57,166 nt of DNA, from positions 1-57,166 of the IMG/VR virus record IMGVR_UViG_3300030433_001734. One strand, written 5' to 3'. This DNA is from a virus (lineage: Duplodnaviria > Caudoviricetes). How positions within the stretch are numbered: position 1 is the stretch's first letter; every line of letters begins with the position of its first letter. A program made the translations under genes and the position numbers. The notes under the pieces are model-generated. The model did not search any database, was not told where the DNA came from, and was given only the letters and a program-made list of their open reading frames with translations. Shown here piece by piece: positions 13,642 through 44,554 of this stretch.

Positions 13642-13767
13642 AAAAAAAGATCACCTACGACTTGCACGCCAAGGTCCACTTCGCCACATATTGCGGTTTA
13701 GTTTTTACACCGTTGCTCACGAGGAAACTGTGCACAGTTATTGTCGGGGCAGAATAGACAGTGATCT
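13642..13767 (-). ncRNA. Candidate ~120-nt structured RNA ending in a U-run
   Basis: Closing stem AGATCAC/GTGATCT followed by a U-run; nested CGAC/GTCG and GTGCA/TGCAC pairs; GC-richer than flanks, no ORF. Confidence 0.35.
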
Positions 13768-13770
13768 ATT

Positions 13771-13817
13771 AAGTAAAGAGAGAAGCCCATGTACATGTTT
13801 CCGTTAAACTTCTCTCT
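13771..13817 (-). terminator. Stem-loop downstream of the 13824 gene
   Basis: 9-bp stem AGAGAGAAG/CTTCTCTCT, 23-nt loop, short U-rich tail. Confidence 0.4.
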
Positions 13818-13823
13818 ATTTAG

Positions 13824-14324
13824 TTAAAATATTGCAAAACCACCTGAATGGTCTGCAAATGTAGCAAATTCTAGTGCATTTTCTACACTAAATGGATAAT
13901 TACTTCTCCAGTCATTTTCATCTAAATCATGTCTTTCTAAATTATAAGATGTACAATATAGATCAAGGTTACCTGATCTTTCTGCTTCTCTTATTCTTTT
14001 AGCTATCTTTTTAGATTTAAGTTTAGATATAAAATGACCATCATTAAATGTACCTGAAGTAATATCTTTTTCTGTTAATATATCACTACATAAATCAGTG
14101 ACATACATCCATAAAGGGCGCCACCACCATACATTATTTCTAAAATAAGTACCAGGTGACAGTGCTTCTATTGTCTGCTCATAAGCCCATACTTTTTCGT
14201 GCTTATCTGCAGTATCCATGTCTGGATCAGATTGAACTAGTTTAATCTGTTTGTGAATACTATTTATTTTCTTCACATTTTCTCTAGGCACAATGGGTGC
14301 CTTACCATATAAGTCAAAGCCCAT
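13824..14324 (-). CDS. Hypothetical phage protein (start corrected to MGFDLYG)
   Basis: FRNNVWWWRPLW and YPF...F..SGGF motifs; the track start at 14387 lies inside the tmRNA. Confidence 0.7.
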   Translation of the reverse strand: MGFDLYGKAPIVPRENVKKINSIHKQIKLVQSDPDMDTADKHEKVWAYEQTIEALSPGTYFRNNVWWWRPLWMYVTDLCSDILTEKDITSGTFNDGHFISKLKSKKIAKRIREAERSGNLDLYCTSYNLERHDLDENDWRSNYPFSVENALEFATFADHSGGFAIF

Positions 14325-14356
14325 ATTAATTAGTTTAAAGTTAATACTAGATGTAG

Positions 14357-14764
14357 TGGAGATGGGGGGAATCGAACCCCCGTCCATCCATGTTTGTTAA
14401 AGTACAGATGTACAAGCTTTTAAGTAATTGGTTTTAATTTCTACACCATCGCGTGGTGTCCCGCATATATTACTTACACATTTGGGCCGCGAAGATATTC
14501 CTAGAAGGTACCACTTCCTCGGAGACTGGTAGCTATTAACAGGCCAGTCTATTGTATTAAGTGACAACTCAATATCATAAAACACTTTTTGAAATAACTA
14601 CCTAGGCAGCTAAAGCAAGTTCTACACTTTGTAGTGGTAGAGCACTAGAGTGAGACTCAGCTCCTATCGGAGTGAGCTTCACCACAGAATAACTATTTTC
14701 GCCAGTTAAAAAGCATCGTGCTTGCCGTACAATCGTCTGCATAGTGTCAAAACCAGTCATCCCC
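14357..14764 (-). ncRNA. ssrA: tmRNA (transfer-messenger RNA), 408 nt, CCA not encoded
   Basis: 5' GGGGATGACTGGTTTTGAC; 3' GGACGGGGGTTCGATTCCCCCCATCTCCA; acceptor stem GGGGATG/CATCTCC with G3.U70 and discriminator A; tag frame 14703-14602 GENSY...ALAA-TAG. Confidence 0.93.
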
Positions 14765-15103
14765 TTTCTGTCCTTCTAAATAAGACATATTATCATCAAA
14801 TCCATTTATATAATCTTGGATAGTATTGTAAATATGCTCTGCAGTCTTTTGACCACATCCATCTAGTTCCTTAAAGCTTGGAACTGTCATAAATATTAAA
14901 TGATTATAGTCTAGTATACTATAATTATCTAATACTTTCTTACCTCTACTGTTTAATCTATCATAGATTACAGATCTATGAAACTCTTTAGCTGCAGCTA
15001 ACTGTTCTTCAGCTTGTTTCTTTTTACATTCACGATATTCTAAATAGTTAGGCCCTTTAACGCCTGTGATAAATCTCCAAAGATTTTTAAATAGTTTGAT
15101 CAT
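14747..15103 (-). CDS. Protein with RNA polymerase alpha C-terminal domain-like (HhH) fold
   Basis: LNSRGKKVLDNYSILDYNHLIFMTVPSFKELDGCGQKTAEHI follows the alphaCTD pattern LSxR...L....I.....L...T...L......GxKS...I. Confidence 0.6.
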   Translation of the reverse strand: MIKLFKNLWRFITGVKGPNYLEYRECKKKQAEEQLAAAKEFHRSVIYDRLNSRGKKVLDNYSILDYNHLIFMTVPSFKELDGCGQKTAEHIYNTIQDYINGFDDNMSYLEGQKGDDWF

Positions 15104-15498
15104 AATTTCAGTTTTAGTTTGTTAATAATTGAGTCCATAATAGCTAGAAATGTTCTATTGTCAAGACATTCTAGCTTAATGTCATGTACAATTGGTTCTA
15201 CTTTCTCTTCTTGTTTAGTTGCTTTCCCATCTGAGATATTTTTAAGCATCTCAAGCATCTTTTCAGGAGAGTCAGCGTCCATAATGTCGTCAATCTGTTG
15301 TTTTGCAGATTGTTCGGTGTCGTTTTCACGCTCTACATAAACATGTAGTTTACAATATACTTTAGCATCAGGATGATCTAGTGCATCCTGAGCTGCTTTT
15401 GTTAATTGTTTAACATAGCCATCTAGTGCAATCTTATCATCAAGAGCATTAAGTTGTCGTAATAAATCCTCATGTTTCTTATTTAAATCTACTTTCAT
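15100..15498 (-). CDS. Hypothetical protein
   Basis: 132 aa ORF with ATGA coupling to the next gene. Confidence 0.65.
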   Translation of the reverse strand: MKVDLNKKHEDLLRQLNALDDKIALDGYVKQLTKAAQDALDHPDAKVYCKLHVYVERENDTEQSAKQQIDDIMDADSPEKMLEMLKNISDGKATKQEEKVEPIVHDIKLECLDNRTFLAIMDSIINKLKLKL

Positions 15499-15553
15499 AA
15501 ATTATTGTTTTATAAGATTATTACTAAATAATAAGTTTAGAAATGATATAATA

Positions 15554-15946
15554 CTAAAATTCATCTTCTTTAGTATCATTAATTATCTTTTCTAACTGTT
15601 CTTTGGACACTATGTCCTCAGGTTTAATTGATTCTTTGCGCATTCCAATTGCAAGATCAGCAACCTGTCTTCTCATACCTTCCATTTGATCAATGTGTTT
15701 TGCTTCTGCGGTTCCCATACCAGCAACAAACACAAAACATATTAATTCTTCTAATGTGTTGTATGTATTTTGTTGTAATACTGCCTCTAATATTTCAGAT
15801 AGTCTAGCTTTGTGGATAGGCTGTATACTATTCATTACTTTACCAAAATGTTCTATTTGATCATCAGTAACTTGAAATAAAGATTGTATCGTTTTGTCAT
15901 CATGACGAAGAGAAATCTGTTTAACTAGTTTGTCTAAATTTTCCAT
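15554..15946 (-). CDS. Hypothetical protein
   Basis: 130 aa ORF. Confidence 0.65.
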   Translation of the reverse strand: MENLDKLVKQISLRHDDKTIQSLFQVTDDQIEHFGKVMNSIQPIHKARLSEILEAVLQQNTYNTLEELICFVFVAGMGTAEAKHIDQMEGMRRQVADLAIGMRKESIKPEDIVSKEQLEKIINDTKEDEF

Positions 15947-16403: not shown

Positions 16404-17097
16404 ATAATGGGCTGAGATTACACCATTATGCACACATCTTTCGTTGTTTAGTTCCTATGTAGAGGTTTACAACTTATCCACTATACTCTCATATAGTAAT
16501 GTGCAGTGACGGTTAGTTAGACTAACCACTTCTAATGTTATTACCTACTCACGAGCTACTCAAACGAGAAATAAAGCCGCTAAACTCTAAATCAGTCTTT
16601 CATTCGCAAACAGAATCACCTTGAGGGATCATCCACTCTCCTTCTAGAGGAGATTTAGTCACCTTTCAGTAATAACAGGCCAACACTTGTTCTTCTTTGA
16701 TTATTAATTGTTTTGCACAGTACTGTCCAGGATGTGGTTGGTCCACAAATGCTTCGTCACCTTTTGAGTGACAAAATACATTACATCCCAGGTATAACTT
16801 TCCATCGTTATAGTATTTCATGATAATCTTATTCCCTAAGACTCTCATTTATACTGATATATACGCCTCACTAGCTTGGATACTAGATTGACACTATATC
16901 TACAGTTTTTCTTATTGATGTCACCATCTCACATCCCAATAATCTTAGGATGCACACATACACTCAGACGATCGTCCTCTGTTGCCGTGTGATATACTGC
17001 TTGCTTAGATTGACCATAATTAAATGGCAACAAATGGTGTTTGTGCTCTTGCACCACTGTCTTTAGTCACATTACTGTGATTATCGGGCTAAGCCCC
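16404..17097 (-). ncRNA. GOLLD-like giant ornate ncRNA (~700 nt; 5' end approximate)
   Basis: Hairpin-dense stretch with no credible ORF. Motifs UUUUGUCACUCAAAAGGUGACGAA, GUGGUUAG..CUAACCG, GUGGAUAA and terminal-loop UAAUCUCAG occur in the order I recall for the GOLLD 3' domain; not verified by search. Confidence 0.75.
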
Positions 17098-26198: not shown

Positions 26199-28703
26199 AT
26201 GTCATCATATACATTTCCACAACAGAGGTTAAGCTATGCGGCTAAAAAGAAGAACGATTTTCAATGGGGTAAAGATGTACTAGATACTCTTGAACTATAT
26301 GGAACAGAACAGGCTTCTTCAGCTGGCTTTCAAGGTGCAGAAGCACGTAAGAGAGTAAACTATGATTTATTTAACGGTATATTAAACATTGCAGACTTCG
26401 AATATGTATGCAAGCCTTATGGTATAGAAGGTACAGGAGAGCTTCCTGCAGAGATTAGACATTACGATATTATATCTCCTAAACTACGTGTGTTATTTGG
26501 TGAAGAAATAAAAAGACCATTTAATTATAAAGTAGTAGCTACAAATCCAGAAGCAATTACAGAGCGAGAAAAAGCACAGGCTGATATGTTGCGTGAGTAT
26601 ATGCAACAAAAAGTGCAAGCGCAAATCCAACAAGCAATGATGGAAGCTGGCATTAATCCTCAGGGAGGACCACAAGATGCAGCTGATCCAGAAGCAATGC
26701 AGCAGCAGCAAATGCAAATGCAGCAGATACAACAACAGATGACCCCTCCTCAAATCGAAGAGTACATGAAAAGAGAGTACCAAGATCAAAGAGAAATAAT
26801 GGGTAATCAAATTTTAGGGTATCTGAGAAGAGAACAAAAATTAAGAGAAAAATTTGTTAAAGGGTGGAAGCATGGTCTTATTACATCAGAAGAAATTTAT
26901 TATGTAGGTATTGTTAATGGAGAGCCTATTGTTAATACAGTAAATCCATTATACTTTACACACGATAAAGATCCTGATCTAGATTATATAGAAGACGGCC
27001 AATGGGCAAAATATGCAATGAGAATGACTCCAGGATCTGTAGTAGATACCTTTGGAGAATACTTAACTCAAAAACAAATTAAAGATCTATACTCGGATTC
27101 TGCCGCTTCAGGCACGTCCCACGCACTTGGTTCCAAAGAATTTTCCTATGACGCGGACCAATTATTTTCAGAGTCTTTCCATACAGATTGGGACCCTTCG
27201 AGTACTAGAGACTCCAGCGCACGTGGATACATTAATGTAATACACTGTGAATGGAGATCTCTGAAAAAAATAGGATTCTTAACATTTGTAGATGATGATT
27301 TCTCTGAGCAAGAAACGATAGTTGATGAAACATATACGTTAAATAAAGCAGGAGGAGACATTAAAATTAAATGGGAGTGGATTCCTGAAGTATGGGAAGG
27401 TACAAAAATAGGTGACGATGTATATTGTAATATACGTCCTAAACCAAATCAGCATAAAGATATTGATAATTTATATTCTTGTAAGTTAGGTTATGTAGGA
27501 TCAACTTATAATAATTTAAATGCTTATCCTATATCTTTAATTGATAGAATGAAACCTTACCAGTATCTATACAATATTATGATGTATAGATTAGAATTAG
27601 ATTTAGCATCGGATAAAGGTAAAAAATTCTTAGCCGATATTAATCAGATACCATCGTCAATGGGTATTGATATGGAAAAGTGGTTATATTACTTTGATGC
27701 TTTAGGTATAGCATTTATTAATCCTAAAGAAGAAGGTAAGAGAGGAGAACAAAATCACTTTAATCAATGGCAGTCTATTGACTTATCTATGGCTCAAACA
27801 ATCCAACAAAAAATTGGATTATTAGAATATTTAGAGCAACAATGTAGCGAGGTATCTGGAATAACAAAACAACGAGAAGGCCAGGTTGGACCAAACGAAC
27901 TGGTAGGTAATACTGAACAAGCAGTTGTTCAATCTTCAGCAATTACTGAAGAACTTTTTTACACACATAATTCTATTAAAGGTAGGGTCCTAGAGGCGTT
28001 GTTAGATACAGCTAAGGTTTGTTGGGGTGATGGTAAAACCAAAAAAATCCAATATATCTTAGATGACATGACTACCCATTTGCTTACGGTAGATCCAATC
28101 CAATTACCAGAATCATCTTTTGGAATCTTTGTTTCTGATTCTTCTAAAGACAGAGAGCTTTATTTAACTATGAAACAGTTAGCACATGCAGCTTTACAGA
28201 ATCAAACTGCAGAATTGTCTGATGTTATTAAAATGCTTTCTACTGATTCTACTGCTGAAATTAAAACTTTACTTGAAAAAGCTGAAGATACTAGAAAAGC
28301 TAGAGAAGAACAAATGCAACAAATGGGGCAACAAACTCAACAGCAACAGATCGAAGCTCAGAAAGAAATTGAAGCTCAAAAAGCTCAGCTTAAGAAATAC
28401 GAAATTGATCAAGATAACGAAACTAAAATCGCAGTTGCAGAAATCAATGCATTTAGAGGAAAAGAAGATCAGGATATAAACGGTAATCAAATACCTGATC
28501 AACTTGAAATAGAAAAACTAAAAGCACAGATAGACAACAACGATAGAAAGTTAGATCTTGAGAATCGTAAATTAGACGTCAAAGAAAAAGAAATGGAGAT
28601 GAAAGATCGACAAGCTGATAAAAAAATGAGAGAAGATCGTAAAAATAAAGAAGCAGATAGAAAGTCTAAGGAAAGACAGGCTAAAAAGAAAGATTCTAAA
28701 TAA
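26199..28703 (+). CDS. Portal protein
   Basis: 834 aa directly after TerL; FPQQRL start, WIPEVWEGTKIG, SGITKQREG, Q-rich coiled-coil tail, typical of crAss-like portals. Confidence 0.85.
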   Translation: MSSYTFPQQRLSYAAKKKNDFQWGKDVLDTLELYGTEQASSAGFQGAEARKRVNYDLFNGILNIADFEYVCKPYGIEGTGELPAEIRHYDIISPKLRVLFGEEIKRPFNYKVVATNPEAITEREKAQADMLREYMQQKVQAQIQQAMMEAGINPQGGPQDAADPEAMQQQQMQMQQIQQQMTPPQIEEYMKREYQDQREIMGNQILGYLRREQKLREKFVKGWKHGLITSEEIYYVGIVNGEPIVNTVNPLYFTHDKDPDLDYIEDGQWAKYAMRMTPGSVVDTFGEYLTQKQIKDLYSDSAASGTSHALGSKEFSYDADQLFSESFHTDWDPSSTRDSSARGYINVIHCEWRSLKKIGFLTFVDDDFSEQETIVDETYTLNKAGGDIKIKWEWIPEVWEGTKIGDDVYCNIRPKPNQHKDIDNLYSCKLGYVGSTYNNLNAYPISLIDRMKPYQYLYNIMMYRLELDLASDKGKKFLADINQIPSSMGIDMEKWLYYFDALGIAFINPKEEGKRGEQNHFNQWQSIDLSMAQTIQQKIGLLEYLEQQCSEVSGITKQREGQVGPNELVGNTEQAVVQSSAITEELFYTHNSIKGRVLEALLDTAKVCWGDGKTKKIQYILDDMTTHLLTVDPIQLPESSFGIFVSDSSKDRELYLTMKQLAHAALQNQTAELSDVIKMLSTDSTAEIKTLLEKAEDTRKAREEQMQQMGQQTQQQQIEAQKEIEAQKAQLKKYEIDQDNETKIAVAEINAFRGKEDQDINGNQIPDQLEIEKLKAQIDNNDRKLDLENRKLDVKEKEMEMKDRQADKKMREDRKNKEADRKSKERQAKKKDSK

Positions 28704-31700
28704 TGAGAAAGCATATAAATGCAACTACTGCACAAGCCAGAAATAAAGGTTTAGAGGGTGCCAGTCCTGGTACCTCAGCTTCTCTTATATACACAGATCA
28801 TAAAGGACGTACTCTTGAGGGACGTCAATCTTATCCCGTGCGCGTATACGCAGATGGCGCGTATGTAGGTATTTTAAATCCTGGAGAAACTATAGATACT
28901 TTTGCTGCAAGTCGTATAGACGAAATGCCTGTTTATAAAAAAGGAGGTAAAATAAAAGGATCTGACGGTAAAGCATGCTGGAAAGGATATAGATTTGTTG
29001 GAACTAAAAATGGTAAAGACAGATGTGTTAAAGTAATGCAGGATGGTACTGTTGTAGAACAACCTGATTCTGGTCCAGAAATAGTAGCAAATCCAATTGA
29101 TTATACACAATATGAATATATTCCTTCTTCTCATTTTGAGATACCTACAGGAGAATTTACCTATAATTTTAGGAGATATATGGGAGACGATGAAAACGGA
29201 GATCCTATATTTGTAAACGAAGAAAGAACAGGAACACACGATCCTAATTGGTATTCTCCAGATTTTGATCCATATGAGTATTATAAATCAGGACAATATG
29301 AAGGTATGGATTTTAGAGATACTCCTATACGTGATTATGAGAATAATCCCTATATGAAGAATGAAAAAATGACGCATCCTTTAGTGTGGGATGAAGATAG
29401 GCTTATAAAAGAAAACAGAAAAAGGTTTAATCAGTCAGTAATAAATGATATATGGAATGAAGACGGAACTTTAAAACCTGAGTATGAACAAAGATTAGGA
29501 TCAAAAAGATACCTACGTCCTTTTGGGCCTAACTACGAAGACGCTCCTAATGCACAAACAAGCGAAGGAAGATGGGCGTCAGATTGGTTTGAAGGCACTA
29601 AATCAGGGTGGGGAAAGCCAGGTAGTGATAGCAGTTGGATGTATAATGAAGAAGCAGGAACATGGCATACTTTTGTTCCAAATGTCGGAGGAGAAGAATG
29701 GGACAATGGCGACTTTCAAGATTTAACTGAAAAAGAATTAAAAAAATTATATAAGGTATATAAAGAATACCCAGGATTTGGAGATATATCTAAAAAAGAG
29801 TTTATAGAAAGATATAAATCAGGAGATACATTTCATCCTCAAATTGCTGGTGTTGAGCAAGAAAAAGCCTGGATAAAAACTTTTGAAGATAAAGTACAGC
29901 CTTTTAAACAAGGAGAATTTGATGCACAAAAAGATTTTTTTGATGGTGCTATTAGTTCTGATTTATATAGAGAAAAATTAATTGCACAAGGATATGAAAA
30001 TGTAGACGAGATAATATCACAAAGAGAAGCAGCATTAGCTAATGCTAATATGAAGTATGAAAGTACTGCTGAGAGTTATGCAGATGAATATGTATCTACA
30101 GGAGGAGGAGATCAAAGTGGATATAGAAAAGGACTAGAAGGTGAGTATGATAAGCACACTAATGATATATATTCTATCCTTGACAAAAGGCAAATAATAT
30201 ATGATTTAATTGATCAAGGAAAAATAGATATAAGTAATTTAGGTAAATGGGATGCTCAGCAGATTTTGGGTATGTATAATGATTATACTCCTTTTGGAGA
30301 TGAAGCGCCTCCTACTGAGCATGGTTTTTATACTACGGGAGAGAGAGACGCTCTTTTTTGGTCACAGTGGGCAAATAAAGGAATTAACATGTCTGACTAT
30401 TTAAATAGTAAAATAAATGAAGGAAAAACTGGATCAAGAGCTTATGTAGCTAGCCCAGACGGAAAAACAGTTATATCTCCAAGACAATTACAACAACTTA
30501 ATATAGATTTAGGAGGAGAAGGAACTACTGAAGAACTTCATTCTTTTTTAGATGAGGTTTCTGCACACGAGCTTGGTCATCAAATGGGAGCAGTAAATGC
30601 TTCAGAAAAGGTACCCTACGGTCTTAATAAAAATGATCAAAACACTATCCATAGATTAATGGAAGAAAGTGGAATAAACTTAGATGACCTCAACTGGCAC
30701 GATAGAGCAGCATACGAAAGAAAAGCAGATCTTGATGCATTAAGATGGAAAATGTATAATACTATAGGATATGACTATAGAACAACTCCAATGACAAAGG
30801 AGATTCTTCAAGAGTATAAAAACTATATTAAAGAAAACCCAATTCCTAGTTTAGTAAATGATAGGAATTTTGAATTTTTTAAAGATGATAAATTAATAGA
30901 ATTTAATAATACTGTTGCTGATGCTACTAATGAAATAGGAGGTGATGATCTTATGTTTATGGAGCTTACAGCAAATGCTAGATACGGAGGCCCTGCTAAA
31001 TATCAAAATGCAGGTAACGTAGTATCTGATTCTACAAATGTTCAAATACAAAGTCCATATGATATAGAAATGGATCTTATCAAAAGTAACTTTGAAAAGA
31101 CTTTTTCTAAAGAGGATAGGGATTACATAAATTTTATAAATACTAGAACTCCTTTTAGAGATGAAACTACTACAGGAGATGATCCTGAACTTTTTTATTT
31201 AGATTTATATAATACAGAGTTAACAGCTGAAGAATTATTAGAATATTATTTATGGAAAGATGAGATGGCTTACAGAAGATCTCTTTTAAATAAAACTAAT
31301 ATAGAAGAAGAGTTACATAAACTAGATATGGATTTGGGTGCATATGATGTCCAAGGATGGTGGAAGTCTGGAGACTATGAAAACACTGATACAGATGGGC
31401 ACGGTACTGATAAATGGAAAAAACCAAACCATCCTACATTTAGTAATGAATCTAAATACGCATCAAACTACGAGTTACCTGAAGGAGAAGAAGACACAAG
31501 AAGTAATTATTTAGGAGGAACTTGGAGTGAGACAGGAGCTTATACTCCTTCTATACATAATATGTACACTAACGAAAGACTTCATTGGGAATTTAATAGA
31601 GAACCACATCGCCCTGAGCATTTATATATGGGTAATGATTTAATTTATAATCATCAGCATTTTCCTATAATTTATGATTTTGAAAAAACAAAAACTTTAG

Positions 31701-34456
31701 ATAATTATGAAGATGGAGGAGGAGTAAAAAAACAAGAAGAAATTCCTCAGTATATAGAAGAGCCTCTTACAGCAAAGATGCAAGAAAAACTTGATAAAAT
31801 GTATAGAGATAATCTAGGAGCTCCTCAAGATCTTGAAATTAATACATTTGATACAAGTACAGAAGACGGTATGATAAAATATTTAAAACATACCGAAAAC
31901 AGCATTATGAAAGGATATGACCCTAAAACAGATAGGTGGTATCCTCACGATGATGGAGCAGGATATATGACTATAGGATATGGGCACAATATAAACTCGC
32001 ACAAAAAAGATACAGGATATACTCTTGAAGAATTACAAAAGAATGGACTTAGTTCAGCTGAAGTCGAGGATCTTTTAAAATATGATATGAAAAGAGAATC
32101 AGACTTAATTGCAAAAAATGTACCTGGATGGGAAGATCTAAATACACAACAGAAAAATGCATTACTTGATATTCAATTTAATATTATAGGAAATGTTTGG
32201 ACTGAGTTTCCTTCGTTTACTGAAGCTGTTGTTAATAAAGACTGGAAGAATGTAGTTCTACATGGATCACGTGCAGAGTTTGCTAAAAATCCAGACGGTA
32301 CTTTTAAACCTAATCAAAGGAATACTGCTTTTTATAAAAGTATGGTAGAGCCTATGATGAATGCGTGGAGACCTAAAACTAAAAATCCAAACTATGTAGA
32401 AAAATTAGATTTGAGTCATATAACGAGGATTCCTCCTGCTGTTCGAGATAAAACATATGTAGACATGCCTATTTTTCCTACAATAGAAATAGACAAAATA
32501 GAAGAGTTTGAAGATGGATCTGAAGTAACAGGAGATCCTCCATCATACAATTTACAAGATTACTTTACAAACAATTTAATTGAAACAACAACTCGTTATC
32601 CTAATTTTTCTGATCAAGATATTTACAAATTTTATTTAGAGAATAAAAATCCAGAAGAAGGCTTTAGTGTTTTCTTTCCTGATGTTTCTGTTCTAAACGA
32701 ACCTCTTAACGAGTTGACTCCTGTTCCTTTTTACTCTTCTAATTTTTCTACTGCAATAGATACACCAAATTTTTACAGAGAAACTGGAACTCTATGTGCT
32801 TCAAATGGACAATTAATAGAAGGATGCGCAGGAGGATTACAAATAGCATATGAATATAATACTCCTTTAAGTAAAGATCAAGTAAGAAATGTAAATGGTA
32901 TAAAAGGAAATGCATGGCAAATGCATCAAAACGTAGTAGATGCTGGAGGACAATCTTTGTTTAATTACTCAAATTTATTAGGAATAGACGAAGACTGGAG
33001 ATCAAATAATTATAATATGAGCAGCGATGATTTATTTTATGAATTTAACAAAGCTAGAAACAGTTATAATCCAAATGATCTTTCAGGATTAGAAGGTGCT
33101 TTACAAGTTGGAGATTTAGTTGATATATTATACGATGGATCAAGTTATCAACCAGAAGCAATTCAAGATGGATTTGGTACTAACATAAATTCTCATGTAG
33201 GTAAAATTACTGAGAAAAATGGACAGCTATATGTTACTCATAATATTAAAGGTAAATGGTATTCTGATAAATTAGATAATGTATTACAAAATCAAAGATA
33301 CAGTACGGGAGGAAAAATGATGATTGTTGGAGGATACAGACCTAGATATGAATCAGGTTTAATTGATGGTGTTTCGTATAAAAACAGAATAGAAAATCCA
33401 GTAGACGGATATAATAGTTTAGTATCTATGGATTATCTTAATCATCTTGGTATGACAATGCCTAATATACAAAGCGATTTTGGATTTAGTGATAGTGATA
33501 GTTCATTAGTTGCAAAAGCTAGCTATGGAACATTTGGAAAAGAAAGTACTTTTGCAACAGGAGCAAGATGGGATGCTAAAAATTATTCAAGAGATTTATT
33601 GCGTGGTTACAAAGGATTAAACGATCAAGAAGGATTTACACTATCTCCTTTGCATGCTACTATTTCTTATTTGTTAGATAAAAAATTTACAGATGGTACT
33701 TTAGACATGGATAGTTTAAGTGAAGGAATGACTCAAATAAAATTAGATGAGTTTGTAAAAGACGATCATATAGCATCACTTTTTGCAGCTTATAATATTA
33801 CAGACCCCGATGTTTTATACACAACTGAAGGATCAAGTCGAGCAACTGCATTAGTTCATTCTTTAAATTTAAAATTAATCAATGATTATTTTTCTGGTCA
33901 TGATTTAAGCGATCAAGTAAAAATGAATATGATGCACATGGCTTTTAACAAAGGAATAGATAATGTTTTAAGAGATTTTGTAGATGATGAAAATATAGTA
34001 ACTCCAGCTAGTTTCCAAAAAGGACATGACCTTTATAAAAATATACATACAAATGAAGAGTCATATTCATATACTCCTAATAAAATAAGCGGCTATATTG
34101 ACTATGATCATTCAAAAATGAAAGCTAATTCTAATCGTGTGGCTAATTATGATGTTGAATCTTTATCAGGATTTGAACAAGGATACATGGATTTAATGGA
34201 AGAGTATGAAAAAAAGAAAGAAGCATTTAATCAAAGCATTAACGAAAATAAAAGAGAGTTTAATACAAGCCAAAGAAAGATAATGAATAAGGTAGATAAA
34301 CTTATAAAGAAAGCAAATAAAACAAAAGACATAAAGTATATTAATAAAGCAAAACAAAAATTAGAGAATTTTGCTTCTGATATAAATGATGATTTAAACA
34401 AAGAAACTAAAACAGTAAAGAGAGGACTAAAAAAGATTAAATCTTTATTTAGATAA
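28703..34456 (+). CDS. Large virion cargo protein with several putative hydrolase domains
   Basis: HELGH zincin motif, lysozyme-like E...D...TIGYGH, Cys/His (GCAGG..GNAW..GDLV..SHVG) domain, SLT-like ES..GMTQ..AFNKG. Confidence 0.65.
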   Translation: MRKHINATTAQARNKGLEGASPGTSASLIYTDHKGRTLEGRQSYPVRVYADGAYVGILNPGETIDTFAASRIDEMPVYKKGGKIKGSDGKACWKGYRFVGTKNGKDRCVKVMQDGTVVEQPDSGPEIVANPIDYTQYEYIPSSHFEIPTGEFTYNFRRYMGDDENGDPIFVNEERTGTHDPNWYSPDFDPYEYYKSGQYEGMDFRDTPIRDYENNPYMKNEKMTHPLVWDEDRLIKENRKRFNQSVINDIWNEDGTLKPEYEQRLGSKRYLRPFGPNYEDAPNAQTSEGRWASDWFEGTKSGWGKPGSDSSWMYNEEAGTWHTFVPNVGGEEWDNGDFQDLTEKELKKLYKVYKEYPGFGDISKKEFIERYKSGDTFHPQIAGVEQEKAWIKTFEDKVQPFKQGEFDAQKDFFDGAISSDLYREKLIAQGYENVDEIISQREAALANANMKYESTAESYADEYVSTGGGDQSGYRKGLEGEYDKHTNDIYSILDKRQIIYDLIDQGKIDISNLGKWDAQQILGMYNDYTPFGDEAPPTEHGFYTTGERDALFWSQWANKGINMSDYLNSKINEGKTGSRAYVASPDGKTVISPRQLQQLNIDLGGEGTTEELHSFLDEVSAHELGHQMGAVNASEKVPYGLNKNDQNTIHRLMEESGINLDDLNWHDRAAYERKADLDALRWKMYNTIGYDYRTTPMTKEILQEYKNYIKENPIPSLVNDRNFEFFKDDKLIEFNNTVADATNEIGGDDLMFMELTANARYGGPAKYQNAGNVVSDSTNVQIQSPYDIEMDLIKSNFEKTFSKEDRDYINFINTRTPFRDETTTGDDPELFYLDLYNTELTAEELLEYYLWKDEMAYRRSLLNKTNIEEELHKLDMDLGAYDVQGWWKSGDYENTDTDGHGTDKWKKPNHPTFSNESKYASNYELPEGEEDTRSNYLGGTWSETGAYTPSIHNMYTNERLHWEFNREPHRPEHLYMGNDLIYNHQHFPIIYDFEKTKTLDNYEDGGGVKKQEEIPQYIEEPLTAKMQEKLDKMYRDNLGAPQDLEINTFDTSTEDGMIKYLKHTENSIMKGYDPKTDRWYPHDDGAGYMTIGYGHNINSHKKDTGYTLEELQKNGLSSAEVEDLLKYDMKRESDLIAKNVPGWEDLNTQQKNALLDIQFNIIGNVWTEFPSFTEAVVNKDWKNVVLHGSRAEFAKNPDGTFKPNQRNTAFYKSMVEPMMNAWRPKTKNPNYVEKLDLSHITRIPPAVRDKTYVDMPIFPTIEIDKIEEFEDGSEVTGDPPSYNLQDYFTNNLIETTTRYPNFSDQDIYKFYLENKNPEEGFSVFFPDVSVLNEPLNELTPVPFYSSNFSTAIDTPNFYRETGTLCASNGQLIEGCAGGLQIAYEYNTPLSKDQVRNVNGIKGNAWQMHQNVVDAGGQSLFNYSNLLGIDEDWRSNNYNMSSDDLFYEFNKARNSYNPNDLSGLEGALQVGDLVDILYDGSSYQPEAIQDGFGTNINSHVGKITEKNGQLYVTHNIKGKWYSDKLDNVLQNQRYSTGGKMMIVGGYRPRYESGLIDGVSYKNRIENPVDGYNSLVSMDYLNHLGMTMPNIQSDFGFSDSDSSLVAKASYGTFGKESTFATGARWDAKNYSRDLLRGYKGLNDQEGFTLSPLHATISYLLDKKFTDGTLDMDSLSEGMTQIKLDEFVKDDHIASLFAAYNITDPDVLYTTEGSSRATALVHSLNLKLINDYFSGHDLSDQVKMNMMHMAFNKGIDNVLRDFVDDENIVTPASFQKGHDLYKNIHTNEESYSYTPNKISGYIDYDHSKMKANSNRVANYDVESLSGFEQGYMDLMEEYEKKKEAFNQSINENKREFNTSQRKIMNKVDKLIKKANKTKDIKYINKAKQKLENFASDINDDLNKETKTVKRGLKKIKSLFR

Positions 34457-40048: not shown

Positions 40049-43000
40049 ATGTCTCAAAGAATTTGTGTATGGTGTGATAATGGTAATGCAGTTTATACGG
40101 CTGCTCCTGCTTTAGATGGAGTATCTCCGTGCTCAGAACCTAATCCAGCAGATTGTCCTTGTGAAAATCTGTTAAATGCTCCTAATGTTCAAGCACAAGG
40201 AGTTACACAAGTTTATACTTCGTTTCATCCAGATCCTAATTTTTCTGTAGTACCTCAGGATTTTAATCCGTGTACTCAACAGAATGCAACTATATGTTAC
40301 ACTTGTAATAATGATAATTCTGGATATTTATCTCAAACTTTAATTAATGGAGGACCTTGTCCTTCAGGATGGTCTAATTCTATTCCTACTTGCGGAGAAA
40401 GTGAGAGTGACCCAACTAACCCTTTATGTCCTCCTCCAGCAAAAGGCTGTGATGTTTGTTATAGCGAGCAGTGTGCTAGTGATGGATCTTTAGAAGTTAC
40501 AATTACATTTGGACAAGGATTAAATAATGTACAAGTACAGATTGGATCTCAAAACATGCAAATATCTCAAGGATGTACTAGTCCAGATAGCAGTAATAAT
40601 CCTTTTACTGTTACTGTATTACCAGGAGATCTTTTATCTGTGAGTGGTTATTGTAGTACTCCATCAATTATAGATGAATGGAATAAAGAAAGAGACGGAG
40701 GAGATGCTCCTTCTTGGGGAGCTGAAGAATGTGGAGATGCAACAGTATCTTCGACTACAAAGATTGTTTGTTTTTATGATACTACATCATTAGGTGCGCC
40801 TGCTCAAGCTAGTATGTATAATGCTGCAAATGAATGGATAAAAACTATTCAAACTGACAGTGGCTTTACAGGAGAAGTATATCACGTAGCTATAGGAGGA
40901 GAAAGATGGGTAATGTGGCCTGCATGGTTATTAGATAATACAGTAGACATTGATGGAATTAATAGAACTAATCTTGCTGCTGCTTGTGGAGTTAATACTC
41001 CTTCAAGTAACTGGGATGCGGGAGAATCTGTATTGCCTGCGTGGAATTCTGATGCAAATGCTTATGTACAAGCTACAGGGTCTCAAGGAAATACTAAAGC
41101 TATGCCTGCACAAATTACTGCAGGAGAAGATGTATTAGTTATTATCTTTGCAGATGAATCTGCAGATCAACCAAATGCTTATACTGTAACTGGTACAGGA
41201 CCTGCTTCAGGAGGTGGTGGAGGACAAGGAATTGGAGGATACCATGGAAGAAACTCAGCAGATAATAATAATGCAGTTATTACACATGCAGATTCTATAT
41301 ACGATATTGTACTTCCTTCTTGTATTAGTGCTACAGGTAATACTAATAACTGGAATCTTTGGGAATTAGATTATAATATTGCAACACCTATAATCGCTGC
41401 ACATAATGCAGGATCAGGAAATATAAGAACTTTTGTATACCCTTCTCAGCCTACAACAGGGTCTATTGGAACTGCAAGACGTCCTTTTCCTTTTCATGTT
41501 TGGGCATCAATTAATTCTGGTTATAATAATACAGGTCTTTTACAAAATGGATCTTCAGCTCCTACTTGTCAAATTGCTGATTTATCTAATTTAGTACAGA
41601 ACGGAGGAGGAACTTTAGTTAACTGGTATGTACAAAATAATGTAGGTAGATTAGATCAATACGGATTTGGAGCTAATGTAGAATGTAAAGCATTTACTGC
41701 ATTAGACTTTGCAGCAGACTTAGATGCTTTTTTAAGTCTGAATAACACAACATGCGACAATACAGATTGTGCTGCTATTAGAGTTGTAACTGAATCGGGA
41801 GTAGGAATTGATTCAGAACCTGTTACTATAAATGGAATTAACATGCTTACAGATGGCCAAGGTTATACTACTTTGGTTAGTGGCTTAGTAGGAGGAGTAG
41901 ATATAAATGGATGTTTACATAATTTTACAGGAGATTGTAGTCAATATTTATTTGAAATAACTAAAATAGAATCTACTCATACTGCAGCTTTAACTTGTGT
42001 TTTAGGCTGTACTGATCCTACTGCTATAAATTATAACCCTAATGCTAACGTAGATGATGGGTCTTGTGAGTATTGTGTATGGGGATGTACTAATCCATTA
42101 TCTTTAAATTATGATCCAGCAGCTACATGTGATGATGGATCTTGTCAAGTATTACCAGACATTGTAGAATGTACTTTGATAAATATGTCTAAAGAAATAC
42201 TAAAACAGTGTCATGACGAATGCGGAGATGTAGAAGCCTATAAAGAATTGCTAGCAGATTACCGAGAAATGGAAGCAATTCTAGCTCAAATATATATGCT
42301 TATCGAATGCGATAAGACTGCAGAATTACAAGCATTAATGCCTAAAATTCTGAGATTAATGGAAAAGTATCAATGTGATAGTTGTTATGAATTCCAAGGA
42401 ACGTCTGGTGATACTACAACTACACAAGACGAAACCTCAGCAACTACATGTGGTGCAGAGTTATCAGGACCTTGTACAAATAAAATGCTTATTCCTAGTG
42501 TAGACGCTTTACAGATAGGTTACCAATTAAATGGTGGCGCTACTGTATATGCATCTACTTCTTCGAATACTGTACTTGGAGATATAACAGGAAATACTGT
42601 AGATGTTACTAGTTATTGCGGACCTACACAAGTAATAAAAACGTTAAATGCATGTGGTTTAGAAAGTATACCAAATGATGCTAACGTATATTGTTTTTAT
42701 GATGTTACTTCTACTTGTGTAGAAGATATACAAAAAATTGTAAACGCAGTAGAACTGTGGTATAAAAGTAAAGTAATAGCAGATCCTACGTATACAGGAG
42801 ATGTATATCATTTACCTGTACACGGAGAAAAGTGGTTAAGATGTGCAGAATATCCTATAGATCAATTATTACATTCAATGTCTTTGCGTTTAGTAAATGG
42901 CTCAGGAAATGCTTTAGGAGGAGGTAACAAAGGATTTTCTACAACTTTAACTGTTGATGTTTTAGATAGAAGCACTATAGGTACAACGCATACAATGGTT

Positions 43001-44554
43001 ACTCAAACAATGTATGGCCCTAAAGCTGGACCTGCAGTTTATAATGATATTGCTACAGGAACAGGAGCTCTTCCTTATTTAAGACCTGGAGGATCGTATG
43101 CAGATCAGGGTACTGCTAGTGGAGGTGCAAGTGATGATAAAGCAGTTGTTTTATGTTTCTTTGATGAAGTAGAAGGAAACCAAGGAGGAGGACCTTACCA
43201 TGATAGAGGGCACGCAGGAGACGGTAGTTATGGATACTGTCCTACAGGAGTTATAGAAGATTTTGGAAATGCTCCAAGAGCTAAATGGAAAACAGATTAT
43301 GATTCTTTTGTAGACAAACATCAGTATTATAGTTTCTTTAAAGGCTTTTTATATCCTGTAATTCCAGGAATACATGTAAGTTCTACAGATTGTGCATCGT
43401 CTTACGATGCAAATAACGCACCTAGTTATAATACAAATGCTTATGCAAATACAGGGAAAATGTTCTTTGTATTAAATGCATTAGCAGGTATACACAAAGG
43501 AGTATGGAATACAGCTACAGATGGACCTGTACCTATTAATCCTGTAATTGCAGCAGCAGCTCATCCAGGAAATGCAACTGTAACAGCTGGAACTTTAGGT
43601 AATTTAAATGCTATCACTCTTGCAGCTAATCCTTACGTAGCTCAAGGATATGATGGACTAAGCGATTATGGCTGGAGTATGGATGCTACAGTAGGTACAC
43701 CAGGAACAAATTCTATTGCAGGAGTATTTACAAGTGGTCAATTTAACAATACTTTAGACTCTTTATTATCAGGAGGAAGTAACTGTAATGGTACAGATTG
43801 TTTAACAGTTATAGTTAAAGATGCAGATACAGGAGCAGTTATAAATGATACATATACTAAGTCTGCAGTTACAGTACAGCCTGGAGTACATCAAATACTA
43901 GATCCTTCTTCTAATGTAACAGTAACTACTGCAGGAGAATGTACTGAGTATGTAGTTACTTTATTTAAAGATGTTATGGATCAATACACAGATTGTGTAT
44001 TAACAACTGCAATAACATGCGGATGTGGAGGCGATCCTTCTATAGTTCTTTCAGTAGGAGCACAAACTCAAATTACAGGTGTAACAACTAATGGAGAAAC
44101 TAAATACGGTACAATAAAGAATGAGACTACAGGAGTTGAAGATGATATTATTTTTGACCCTGATGTAGTAGGACCTTTAACAGGATCTATTACTCTAGAT
44201 AAAACATTAAAGAATAGTAGCTTTTTTAAACCAAATACAGAACTACCAGATGGTAGATATAAAATTACGTTAGATAGCGTAGGAGGAAAAAAGAAAGAAC
44301 TGTGCTTTTTAATACTGTGTGATTCTTATGCAAAATTACTAGATGCATTTGAAAGATACACACTACAGATTGATTGCTGTCCTACTTGTACAAGCCCTGA
44401 AGAAAAATACTTAGAGGCGTACAGCTTATATCGAGCATTAAAAGTAGCAGGAATAGACTGTGGACTTGAACCATGGATAGATAAGAATATTAAAAAATTA
44501 CAAGCGTGTTGTTCTGCATGTGGAGCAGATGCTGATTGTAACCAAAATTGTTAA
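40049..44554 (+). CDS. Large Cys-rich protein with two duplicated VWA-like modules and GCT(D/N)...DDGSC repeats (probable fibre/adhesin)
   Basis: Internal duplication CFYDTTS/CFYDVTS...VYH...GE(R/K)W...F(A/F)DE; two GCT..A/S.NY.P.A..DDGSC repeats. Confidence 0.6.
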   Translation: MSQRICVWCDNGNAVYTAAPALDGVSPCSEPNPADCPCENLLNAPNVQAQGVTQVYTSFHPDPNFSVVPQDFNPCTQQNATICYTCNNDNSGYLSQTLINGGPCPSGWSNSIPTCGESESDPTNPLCPPPAKGCDVCYSEQCASDGSLEVTITFGQGLNNVQVQIGSQNMQISQGCTSPDSSNNPFTVTVLPGDLLSVSGYCSTPSIIDEWNKERDGGDAPSWGAEECGDATVSSTTKIVCFYDTTSLGAPAQASMYNAANEWIKTIQTDSGFTGEVYHVAIGGERWVMWPAWLLDNTVDIDGINRTNLAAACGVNTPSSNWDAGESVLPAWNSDANAYVQATGSQGNTKAMPAQITAGEDVLVIIFADESADQPNAYTVTGTGPASGGGGGQGIGGYHGRNSADNNNAVITHADSIYDIVLPSCISATGNTNNWNLWELDYNIATPIIAAHNAGSGNIRTFVYPSQPTTGSIGTARRPFPFHVWASINSGYNNTGLLQNGSSAPTCQIADLSNLVQNGGGTLVNWYVQNNVGRLDQYGFGANVECKAFTALDFAADLDAFLSLNNTTCDNTDCAAIRVVTESGVGIDSEPVTINGINMLTDGQGYTTLVSGLVGGVDINGCLHNFTGDCSQYLFEITKIESTHTAALTCVLGCTDPTAINYNPNANVDDGSCEYCVWGCTNPLSLNYDPAATCDDGSCQVLPDIVECTLINMSKEILKQCHDECGDVEAYKELLADYREMEAILAQIYMLIECDKTAELQALMPKILRLMEKYQCDSCYEFQGTSGDTTTTQDETSATTCGAELSGPCTNKMLIPSVDALQIGYQLNGGATVYASTSSNTVLGDITGNTVDVTSYCGPTQVIKTLNACGLESIPNDANVYCFYDVTSTCVEDIQKIVNAVELWYKSKVIADPTYTGDVYHLPVHGEKWLRCAEYPIDQLLHSMSLRLVNGSGNALGGGNKGFSTTLTVDVLDRSTIGTTHTMVTQTMYGPKAGPAVYNDIATGTGALPYLRPGGSYADQGTASGGASDDKAVVLCFFDEVEGNQGGGPYHDRGHAGDGSYGYCPTGVIEDFGNAPRAKWKTDYDSFVDKHQYYSFFKGFLYPVIPGIHVSSTDCASSYDANNAPSYNTNAYANTGKMFFVLNALAGIHKGVWNTATDGPVPINPVIAAAAHPGNATVTAGTLGNLNAITLAANPYVAQGYDGLSDYGWSMDATVGTPGTNSIAGVFTSGQFNNTLDSLLSGGSNCNGTDCLTVIVKDADTGAVINDTYTKSAVTVQPGVHQILDPSSNVTVTTAGECTEYVVTLFKDVMDQYTDCVLTTAITCGCGGDPSIVLSVGAQTQITGVTTNGETKYGTIKNETTGVEDDIIFDPDVVGPLTGSITLDKTLKNSSFFKPNTELPDGRYKITLDSVGGKKKELCFLILCDSYAKLLDAFERYTLQIDCCPTCTSPEEKYLEAYSLYRALKVAGIDCGLEPWIDKNIKKLQACCSACGADADCNQNC

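Follow-up and report, generated by a model that had tools for sequence, protein, structure and literature searches.

The DNA considered here is a contig of 57,166 bases, called the window, which is an entire IMG/VR virus record (IMGVR_UViG_3300030433_001734) with an estimated completeness of 61%. Its minus strand contains a complete one-piece gene for transfer-messenger RNA (tmRNA) at positions 14354-14764, with the 5' end at G 14764. The Rfam model RF00023 covers this segment over the full length of the model (positions 1-374) with 66.6 bits and an E-value of 8e-24, the gathering score being 47 bits, and ARAGORN calls a tmRNA on the same strand at 14356-14764. Sequence elements for alanine charging, frame setting and termination with a hydrophobic C-terminus are all present. 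The gene quite probably specifies a working tmRNA of Bacteroidota ancestry with a 33-codon tag read from GGC 14703, and its carrier appears to be a marine crAss-like phage that probably infects Flavobacteriia.

Gene architecture and carrier phage

Homologues can be found with a pattern that joins the six bases directly preceding the resume codon to codons 1-5 of the tag. This pattern matches 5 IMG/VR contigs (two more IMG/VR pattern scans gave the same five) and 11 metagenome contigs. One match, on L166, is not a tmRNA according to either ARAGORN or Rfam and was dropped from all counts. Another, on L154, runs off the end of its contig and is represented by its twin L167. The result is a marine clade of nine distinct sequences, including that of the window, all nine of which pass the RF00023 gathering score with 64-79 bits.

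The ends of the RNA form a tRNA-like domain. Its acceptor stem consists of 7 base pairs between GGGGAUG (14758-14764) and CAUCUCC (14358-14364) and contains the alanine identity pair G3.U70, which is G.U in 8/8 aligned homologues. Pair 5 of the same stem covaries (GC in five sequences, AU in three; RNAalifold, eight sequences). The T-arm, GGGGG UUCGAUU CCCCC, and the 3' acceptor strand that follows it occupy 14356-14386 and are aligned by Rfam with high posterior probability; one pair of the T-stem covaries (UA in four, GC in three, CG in one). At the 3' end, the discriminator A 14357 is followed by CUA instead of CCA, so that the CCA is only partly encoded (A-C-U-A).

Helix 2, the link between the tRNA-like domain and the remainder of the RNA, is present (alignment columns 38-43 with 406-411, four pairs changed on both sides). 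Helix 2d, formed by GCAAGC (14720-14725) and GCUUGU, is invariant. At the far end of the tag frame, folding and RNAalifold place the stop codon UAG in the loop of a helix-5-like hairpin (14595-14612) whose pairs are mostly invariant. In canonical tmRNAs, too, the stop codon sits in the loop of helix 5 (PMC1168896). The region of pseudoknots 2-4 has low posterior probability in Rfam and is poorly aligned by MAFFT and RNAalifold, which recover two small covarying hairpins in it.

A first-pass annotation, made from the letters alone, had proposed a complete phage-encoded tmRNA of Bacteroidota type with intact tRNA-like ends and the G3.U70 pair. The proposal is borne out: the gene is complete and called at these coordinates by both tools, the acceptor stem reads as described, and the context of the resume codon is the same as in host tmRNAs. 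ARAGORN also makes a second call, a permuted 'tmRNA*' at 13733-14447 with a tag beginning ENDWRSNYPF. This call is spurious. It reuses the same T-arm, enters the open reading frame (ORF) downstream and has no Rfam match.

Other genes of the contig specify a large terminase, a portal and a major head protein (PHROG E-values from 1e-123 to 1e-190), and on the minus strand there is a replication block with a family-A DNA polymerase, helicases, a primase and nucleases. On the strand of this block, the tmRNA precedes the polymerase by about 2.2 kb. In GenBank, 142 phage records match the head protein, the best being Flavobacterium phage FpV4 (43%) and the rest going under the names Bacteroides, crAssphage, Cellulophaga, Azobacteroides or uncultured. 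Judged by its PHROG structural families and these head-protein matches, the phage is crAss-like. The same matches, together with the gene content, make a Bacteroidota host likely, probably one of the marine Flavobacteriia. The same DNA is present in marine metagenome runs of several studies.

The tag frame in phages and hosts

Rfam aligns UAACU|GGC of the window to UAAuU|GCa of the model, which makes GGC (Gly, 14701-14703) the resume codon. The frame that begins there spans 14602-14703 and comprises 33 codons, GENSYSVVKLTPIGAESHSSALPLQSVELALAA (14703-14605), with a hydrophobic C-terminus ...ELALAA, and the stop UAG (14602-14604). The bases U(-5) and A(-4), which are the counterparts of the frame-setting U85 and A86 of E. 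coli (PMC2481249), are kept in the context UUAACU|GGC, and this context is invariant in 9/9 homologues.

In all nine distinct homologues the GGC frame is open, with a length of 32, 33 or 34 codons; each of the other two frames contains 2-5 stops in every variant. The length classes differ in a variable core of the insert, which measures 42 nucleotides (nt) in the window (14647-14688) and 45 or 39 nt in the other classes, all three lengths being divisible by three. When the cores are shuffled, the chance of having no in-frame stop is 0.55, 0.43 and 0.40 for the three classes. The joint chance of no stop and three lengths divisible by three is about 0.003, if the classes are treated as independent, which is an approximation.

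The tags of bacterial hosts are much shorter. A scan of bacterial genomes for UUAACU GGC GAA AAU ARY UAY GC gives at least 120 loci, all listed under Bacteroidota record names. Among the 120 listed, 118 carry 9-codon tags (GENNYALAA in 111, GENNYAYAA in five, GENNYAMAA and GENNYALVA in one each) and two are cut by the end of the locus. In the family of one Flavobacteriaceae genome, a tmRNA scoring 111-170 bits is present in 59/61 genomes. Of 30 loci from this family, 28 have 9-codon tags, one receives an 8-residue call and one an odd ARAGORN start at nt 165; the coding start lies at nt 95-99 in 29/30. The long tag thus does not appear to be a host trait in the genomes searched.

Set against the host tag GENNYALAA, the tag of the window has 24 extra codons (codons 6-29, 14617-14688), which sit between GENSY and ALAA. 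The first-pass annotation had already described a host-type tag (GENxY...A[LV]AA) enlarged in frame by about 24 codons, written the peptide exactly as GENSYSVVKLTPIGAESHSSALPLQSVELALAA, placed GGC after UUAACU and given Bacteroidota tags about 9 codons. Each point agrees with the comparison: the Rfam alignment, the host-identical context and its 9/9 invariance support GGC, the homologue alignment shows neither frameshift nor stop in 9/9 variants, and the 9-codon length is found in 118/118 readable listed matches and 28/30 loci of the family sample.

The phage gene therefore combines two sets of features. Like Bacteroidota ssrA, it is a one-piece gene of about 400 nt with UUAACU|GGC GAA AAU, a Gly resume codon, G3.U70 and an A[LV]AA end; helix 2d is GCAAGC in the phage and GCAUGC in Bacteroidota ssrA. 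Unlike it, the phage gene has a tag of 33 instead of 9 codons, a resume codon at nt 62 instead of nt 95-99, two extra hairpins within the frame and no pseudoknot 1, and it scores 66.6 bits instead of 111-170.

A second group of long-tag tmRNAs can be found in phages related to FpV4. The gene in FpV4 itself lies at NC_041872.1 81947-82361 on the minus strand (L319 1501-1915), matches RF00023 with 58.2 bits and is located within a 2.3-kb stretch without any annotated feature. ARAGORN makes no call there. In the Rfam alignment, UAAUU|GGA falls on the resume context with high posterior probability, and the tag contains an insertion of 45 nt; read from GGA at nt 91, the frame has 35 codons, GNTNNSVVSLEDNAQVEANMNMAFSLIREDVAVAA. 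The gene is 100% identical in 29/29 records of phages of the fish pathogen Flavobacterium psychrophilum and is marked in 0/13 annotated records.

A degenerate pattern derived from the first codons of FpV4 finds 10 IMG/VR contigs. Their tags have 35 codons (five loci), 44 (four) or 45 (one), and none of the ten frames is interrupted after GGA, their last residues being VAVAA or LAMVA. The 44- and 45-codon tags, on L353, L354, L355, L356 and L359, end in LAMVA. Of six loci of the group that were scanned, five pass the RF00023 gathering score and L359 does not. On these six, ARAGORN makes four calls, with shortened tags that start at nt 137 or nt 170.

The FpV4 group (Fipvunavirus) belongs to the same kind of phage as the window (head protein 45% identical) and likewise has a Gly resume codon, here after UAAUU, and a long tag, which begins G-N-x-N-N-S-V-V-x-L and ends in VAVAA. 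It differs in the position of its resume codon, at nt 86-91 with the usual upstream spacing, in its tag lengths of 35, 44 and 45 codons, and in that some of its tags end in LAMVA. The likeness between G-N-T-N-N-S-V-V-S-L in FpV4 and G-E-N-S-Y-S-V-V-K-L in the window weakly suggests an extension shared by ancestry.

A third type of phage tmRNA, with 93.3 bits and an upstream region long enough for pseudoknot 1, occurs in two copies with identical tags (L060 8002-8408 (+) and L077 1503-1909 (+)). From UAAUU|GGC at about nt 93 it has a 35-codon frame, GDESLDGLVIDWHLAEYDVPSEPIGDYQPTYAYAA, of which ARAGORN reports only the last 11 codons.

Because ARAGORN misses or shortens such genes and 29 GenBank records leave them unannotated, surveys of phage tmRNAs probably count too few of them and give tag lengths that are too short.

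Usual tmRNA tags have 8-11 residues. Longer ones reportedly occur in Mycoplasma, where Gur and Sauer in 2008 are said to have described tags of about 27 residues that are read by Lon instead of ClpXP. The phage tag is similar in being much longer than usual. It differs in that the Mycoplasma tmRNA is chromosomal and belongs to a lineage without ClpXP, whereas here the phage copy alone is long.

Hairpins in the insert and pseudoknot 1

The insert between GENSY and ALAA consists of two RNA hairpins, after which comes the helix-5-like hairpin. Hairpin 1 (14645-14687) begins about 20 nt past the resume codon and has about 17 base pairs and a GAUA loop, with a folding energy of -20.8 kcal/mol and a z-score of -2.6. 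Its equivalents in five other variants have z-scores from -1.2 to -3.8, and 5/6 of the tested hairpins reach -2.4 or lower. The sequences of the three length classes differ and the hairpin is the same. In an alignment of eight sequences, 89.4% of the cells of its 13 pairs are paired, compared with 31-55% when the partner is slid by 1-3 columns, and 6/13 pairs have changed on both sides, compared with 0-2 in the slid controls. The covariation score was reached by 0/500 shuffles. In the outer stem, the registers of the window's class and of the 34-codon class are one base apart, so that some cells in fixed columns count as unpaired. Hairpin 2 (14621-14641), given by RNAalifold, pairs UCUAC with GUAGA around an 11-nt loop and shows one compensatory change from U-A to C-G, in L158 and L161.

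Selection on such an insert can act on the RNA, on the peptide or on both. The frame is subject to few amino acid changes relative to silent ones: by the Nei-Gojobori method, the proportion of synonymous changes (pS) exceeds that of non-synonymous changes (pN) in 12/13 equal-length pairs of the marine clade and in 7/7 of the FpV4 group, 19/20 overall. This excess argues that the frame is translated and its peptide constrained.

It is also conceivable, though on the unlikely side, that the tag is translated and that selection acts solely on the hairpins, for stability, nuclease resistance or the loading of the mRNA-like domain, the peptide being a passenger that need only be open and harmless. 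The covariation of hairpin 1 in 6/13 pairs fits this, as do the widely differing peptides that the hairpin encodes in the three classes (VVKLTPIGAESHS, KVAKFFPIGNSFVA and KLVNLTPRVESTY) and the observation that rescue by E. coli tmRNA suffers little when its tag template is altered (PMC2481249). A passenger peptide would not be expected to show pS above pN in 19/20 pairs. Moreover, the four 44-codon variants of the FpV4 group differ mainly at third positions (L353 and L355 by four synonymous and no non-synonymous changes), and folding of the whole tag is no better than in shuffles for 2/3 FpV4-group tags (z-scores of -0.25 and -0.46).

The first-pass annotation had suggested selection on the long peptide. 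The synonymous excess speaks for this; in the marine clade the insert peptides largely differ by class while the hairpin covaries, which implies that part of the constraint rests on RNA structure plus an open frame. The comparison of variants points to constraint on both the peptide and the RNA of the insert.

The other peculiarity of the molecule lies upstream of the tag. Only 16 nt separate helix 2d from the resume codon, and pseudoknot 1 (PK1) is missing. The linker, ACGAUGCUUUUUAACU (14704-14719), keeps U-5 and A-4, and 26 positions of the Rfam model are collapsed to one. Set side by side, a Flavobacteriales tmRNA has a PK1 of about 38 nt plus AAAUUUAACU between helix 2d and the resume codon, where the phage has just ACGAUGC plus UUUUUAACU. 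The resume codon falls at nt 62 in the phage, compared with a median of nt 96 in 109 Bacteroidota tmRNAs (median gene length 398 nt). Inspection showed no alternative pairing. Two substitutes, a pseudoknot that uses ACGAUGC and a PK1 relocated into the insert, were considered and rejected. No conserved complement was seen, and FpV4 has normal spacing together with a long tag.

Hardly any known tmRNA lacks PK1 (PMC1168896). In experiments other elements can take its place (PMC2481249), and on the ribosome it is located between the subunits (PMC8363625). A natural lineage of tmRNAs without PK1 is unusual. Since FpV4 combines a long tag with an upstream region of ordinary length, relocation of PK1 does not account for the extra codons. 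Read from these sequences, PK1 was lost at a later point, in the marine clade. The missing PK1 had escaped the first-pass annotation, as had the members of the family in cultured phages and the tags of up to 45 codons in that group.

The position of the resume codon bears on a further alternative, in which translation resumes at GCU (14659-14661) and the stretch 14703-14662 is an untranslated stand-in for the lost PK1. GCU 14661 is the start picked by ARAGORN, which reports a 19-residue tag, AESHSSALPLQSVELALAA. At nt 104 of the gene it is near the host median of nt 96, its context UAGGA|GCU likewise has U(-5)A(-4), and the stretch preceding it is structured. This context is not conserved, however: UAG is out of register in L161, L162 and L167 and missing in L160. 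The codon itself lies inside the 3' strand of hairpin 1, and the part upstream of it keeps its frame, with indels in multiples of three and synonymous changes. ARAGORN is also an inconsistent guide to these genes, with no tmRNA call in seven homologue-bearing loci and starts at nt 137 or nt 170 in the FpV4 group. Finally, FpV4 has a long tag and yet a resume codon at nt 91, which argues against the extra codons being a moved PK1. Resumption at GCU is very unlikely on this evidence, and GGC 14703 is retained as the resume codon.

Distribution, proposed working and surroundings

The gene has a restricted distribution. One relative from the same phage group, G003 (92 kb, 100% complete), shares 88% identity with the window in the head protein and 59% in the polymerase. 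In G003, in G004 and in L043/L112, the tmRNA occupies the same syntenic place, about 2 kb ahead of the DNA polymerase. Four near-complete relatives (93-96%, polymerase 55-56% identical) have no RF00023 match. Among 50 loci with related polymerases, ARAGORN calls one tmRNA, in L043, and an nhmmer profile of the family finds only the same one, about half of these loci being too short upstream. Given its absence from near-complete relatives and its presence in 1/50 loci, the gene marks certain lineages and not the whole phage group. A blastn search against 50,697 GenBank phage records gives only matches of 30-40 nt at the 3' end, in 12 unrelated phages; FpV4 was not found in this way because it is too diverged.

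One relative has a second RNA of this kind. In G004, between the polymerase and the tmRNA and about 2 kb from the latter, C1:16162-16275 (L291 1501-1614 (-)) encodes a 114-nt RNA that is a tRNA-like domain only. It has G3.U and an encoded CCA, scores 45.3 bits with RF00023, just below the cut-off, and is not called by ARAGORN. A domain-only RNA related to tmRNA is also described in mycobacteriophage DS6A (PMC4131195), and is comparable to the G004 RNA; the RNA of the window has a full mRNA-like domain. In the window, no domain-only RNA was found between 11500 and 20000 at E-values up to 0.1.

It is common for prophages to insert themselves into ssrA and to take along its 3' end. In IMG/VR, 102 viral contigs (L052-L153) share an exact 30-nt tmRNA 3' end. 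Many of them are called by ARAGORN as two-piece (permuted) tmRNAs with tags of the ANDExFALAA type, and several of the matches stand at contig ends, as expected of prophage att sites in ssrA.

The integration habit raises the question of whether the phage gene is itself a piece of host ssrA, either the att-site remnant of a temperate phage or the product of a chimeric assembly, and the many 30-nt matches at contig ends count in favour of such an origin. The gene of the window is complete and internal to its contig, however, it is syntenic near the polymerase in L043/L112, G003 and G004, and it recurs in independent assemblies from several collections. A blastn search of 401 genomes of the bacterial class gives only short matches, nearly all at the 3' end, and the long tag occurs in 0/118 readable bacterial matches among those listed. 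The probability of a host piece is practically negligible.

A phage-encoded tmRNA of this kind would be expected to work as follows. The RNA would be transcribed with the minus-strand replication genes and excised by host tRNA-processing enzymes, and host enzymes would complete the CCA and charge it with alanine. Host SmpB would bind it, because the phage has no smpB of its own. PF01668 matches in 0/3 records (the window, the 100%-complete relative G003 and G004), while control genomes score; the absence from the window that the first-pass annotation had noted thus extends to two relatives. The charged RNA would enter stalled ribosomes, and translation would resume at GGC 14703, proceed through the two hairpins and stop at UAG. 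Rescued chains would gain an alanine and a 33-residue tag, with a C-terminus that is a degron of the host type. The hairpins may supply structure of the mRNA-like domain that was lost with the shortened upstream region.

As to why a phage would carry the gene, the best guess is that it would keep ribosome rescue going during infection. The first-pass annotation had offered two guesses, an altered fate of rescued proteins or a substitute for host tmRNA lost to anti-phage RNases. The extension might also alter how tagged proteins are handled, in what manner or by which protease or adaptor being a matter of guesswork. From the side of the peptide, a long tag may be a spacer or an extra recognition element that changes the protease or adaptor. 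No candidate for either was seen among 20 ORFs of the window scanned with Pfam.

Several observations weigh against a working tmRNA with a selected tag. The Rfam score of 66.6 bits is far below the 111-170 bits of host tmRNAs, and alignment confidence is low across the region of pseudoknots 2-4. A molecule without PK1 might work poorly or differently, and a 16-nt linker may be short for the geometry on the ribosome. The pN/pS values come from very few changes in pairs that are not independent, and the pair of the window and L138 goes the opposite way, with a single non-synonymous change. The homologue search pattern spans codons 1-5, so that their invariance is partly due to ascertainment, and beyond them the insert peptide is poorly conserved across the three marine classes. 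The hairpin covariation, lastly, comes from eight sequences in about three independent clades, and the structure was derived from the same alignment.

A molecule that had lost its function in rescue could still serve as a decoy, soaking up host SmpB, EF-Tu or stalled ribosomes in order to block host trans-translation, with the frame left as a relic. The low Rfam score and the missing PK1 fit such a role. The domain-only RNA carried by G004 (114 nt, 45.3 bits, G3.U, encoded CCA, about 2 kb away) can be cited for it as well, and an inhibitory action on tmRNA, which may come about through titration of SmpB, has been reported for domain-only RNA (PMC4131195). A frame that is no more than a relic would not have remained open in 9/9 marine and 10/10 FpV4-group loci at six different lengths, though, nor would it keep an A[LV]AA or AMVA end and a stop in a hairpin loop, or show a synonymous excess. 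The resume context, too, is invariant. A decoy is accordingly judged highly improbable, and a tmRNA that tags proteins remains the preferred reading.

Phage tmRNAs as such are known. They are reported in 402/18,146 phage genomes (PMC9004378), and lists of ssrA-bearing phages have been compiled (PMC4131195). Like those of the mycobacteriophage Bxz1 group, of Bacillus phage G, and of methylophage Melnitz and the pelagimyophages (two-piece), the gene of the window is a complete ssrA in a lytic-type phage without smpB (PMC9004378, PMC4131195). The other phage tmRNAs that ARAGORN calls here have tags of host length, 10-15 residues. Roles proposed for phage tmRNAs are upkeep of the hijacked translation machinery and selective tagging of proteins (PMC9004378); by analogy, both ideas would fit the tmRNA of the window.

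In the openly accessible texts consulted, which do not take in subscription papers or supplementary tables, there is no paper that joins tmRNA with FpV4-type or crAss-like phages beyond routine use of ARAGORN, and no report of a phage tmRNA without PK1 or with a tag of 32-45 codons. What appears to be new is a lineage of phage tmRNAs with 32-45-codon tags, PK1 lost in one clade, that is systematically missed by ARAGORN.

A wider interpretation can be offered tentatively. CrAss-like phages of Flavobacteriia may possibly run a trans-translation of their own, in which a tag of 32-45 residues, 3.5-5 times as long as that of the host, acts as a phage-specific fate signal (through another protease or adaptor, or through slower or faster degradation), and in which the hairpins allow ribosome loading without PK1 in the marine clade. 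If this is true, here would be a tmRNA that naturally does without PK1, and a degradation code specific to a virus. The differences between the phage copy and that of the host are defined and conserved, which suggests a need beyond extra copies of the host RNA. The lineage is a natural test of whether PK1 is dispensable and of what the length of a tag means for the way in which tagged proteins are handled. Cultures exist of phages of the FpV4 type and of their host, which brings the question within reach of experiment.

Around the gene, an upstream ORF (14747-15103 (-)) overlaps the first 18 nt of the tmRNA gene. A downstream ORF (13824-14324 (-)), whose product begins MGFDLYG, starts with ATG at 14324, 30 nt past the tmRNA, and is conserved in relatives. 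Neither flanking ORF belongs to a PHROG or Pfam family.

Metatranscriptomes give no more than a hint of expression of the tmRNA, as DNA may occur in RNA libraries. An identical 336-nt contig over 14391-14726 is found in two runs of one sample, and in a run of another study a relative that is 90-95% alike is represented by contigs at 14392-14548 and 14553-14703. The contigs from RNA libraries do not cover the flank 14746-15655, and contigs cannot show absence, ends or level.

The tmRNA is not the only structured RNA in this part of the genome. A GOLLD RNA (RF02032, 218.6 bits with a gathering score of 150) lies at 16409-16791 (-), on the strand of the tmRNA and 1.6 kb upstream of it. This RNA occupies the same place in five relatives (L112, L138, L155, L158 and L167) with 212-225 bits; none was found beside the tmRNA of the FpV4 group. 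Metatranscriptome contigs over the GOLLD region 16564-16900 have the highest word depth of the stretch examined. In three relatives a Pistol ribozyme (RF02679, 67-69 bits with a gathering score of 34.5) is located just upstream of GOLLD, at L155 11396-11471 (-), L158 3661-3749 (-) and L167 690-756 (+), forming a cluster of non-coding RNAs of Pistol, GOLLD and tmRNA. In the window, Pistol has no match between 11500 and 20000 at E-values up to 0.1.

The structural block of the window, finally, contains two giant ORFs, 28703-34456 (+) with 1917 amino acids and 40049-44554 (+) with 1501. The latter is without a family, and the former has a weak lysozyme-like segment (PHROG endolysin family, E-value 4e-7).

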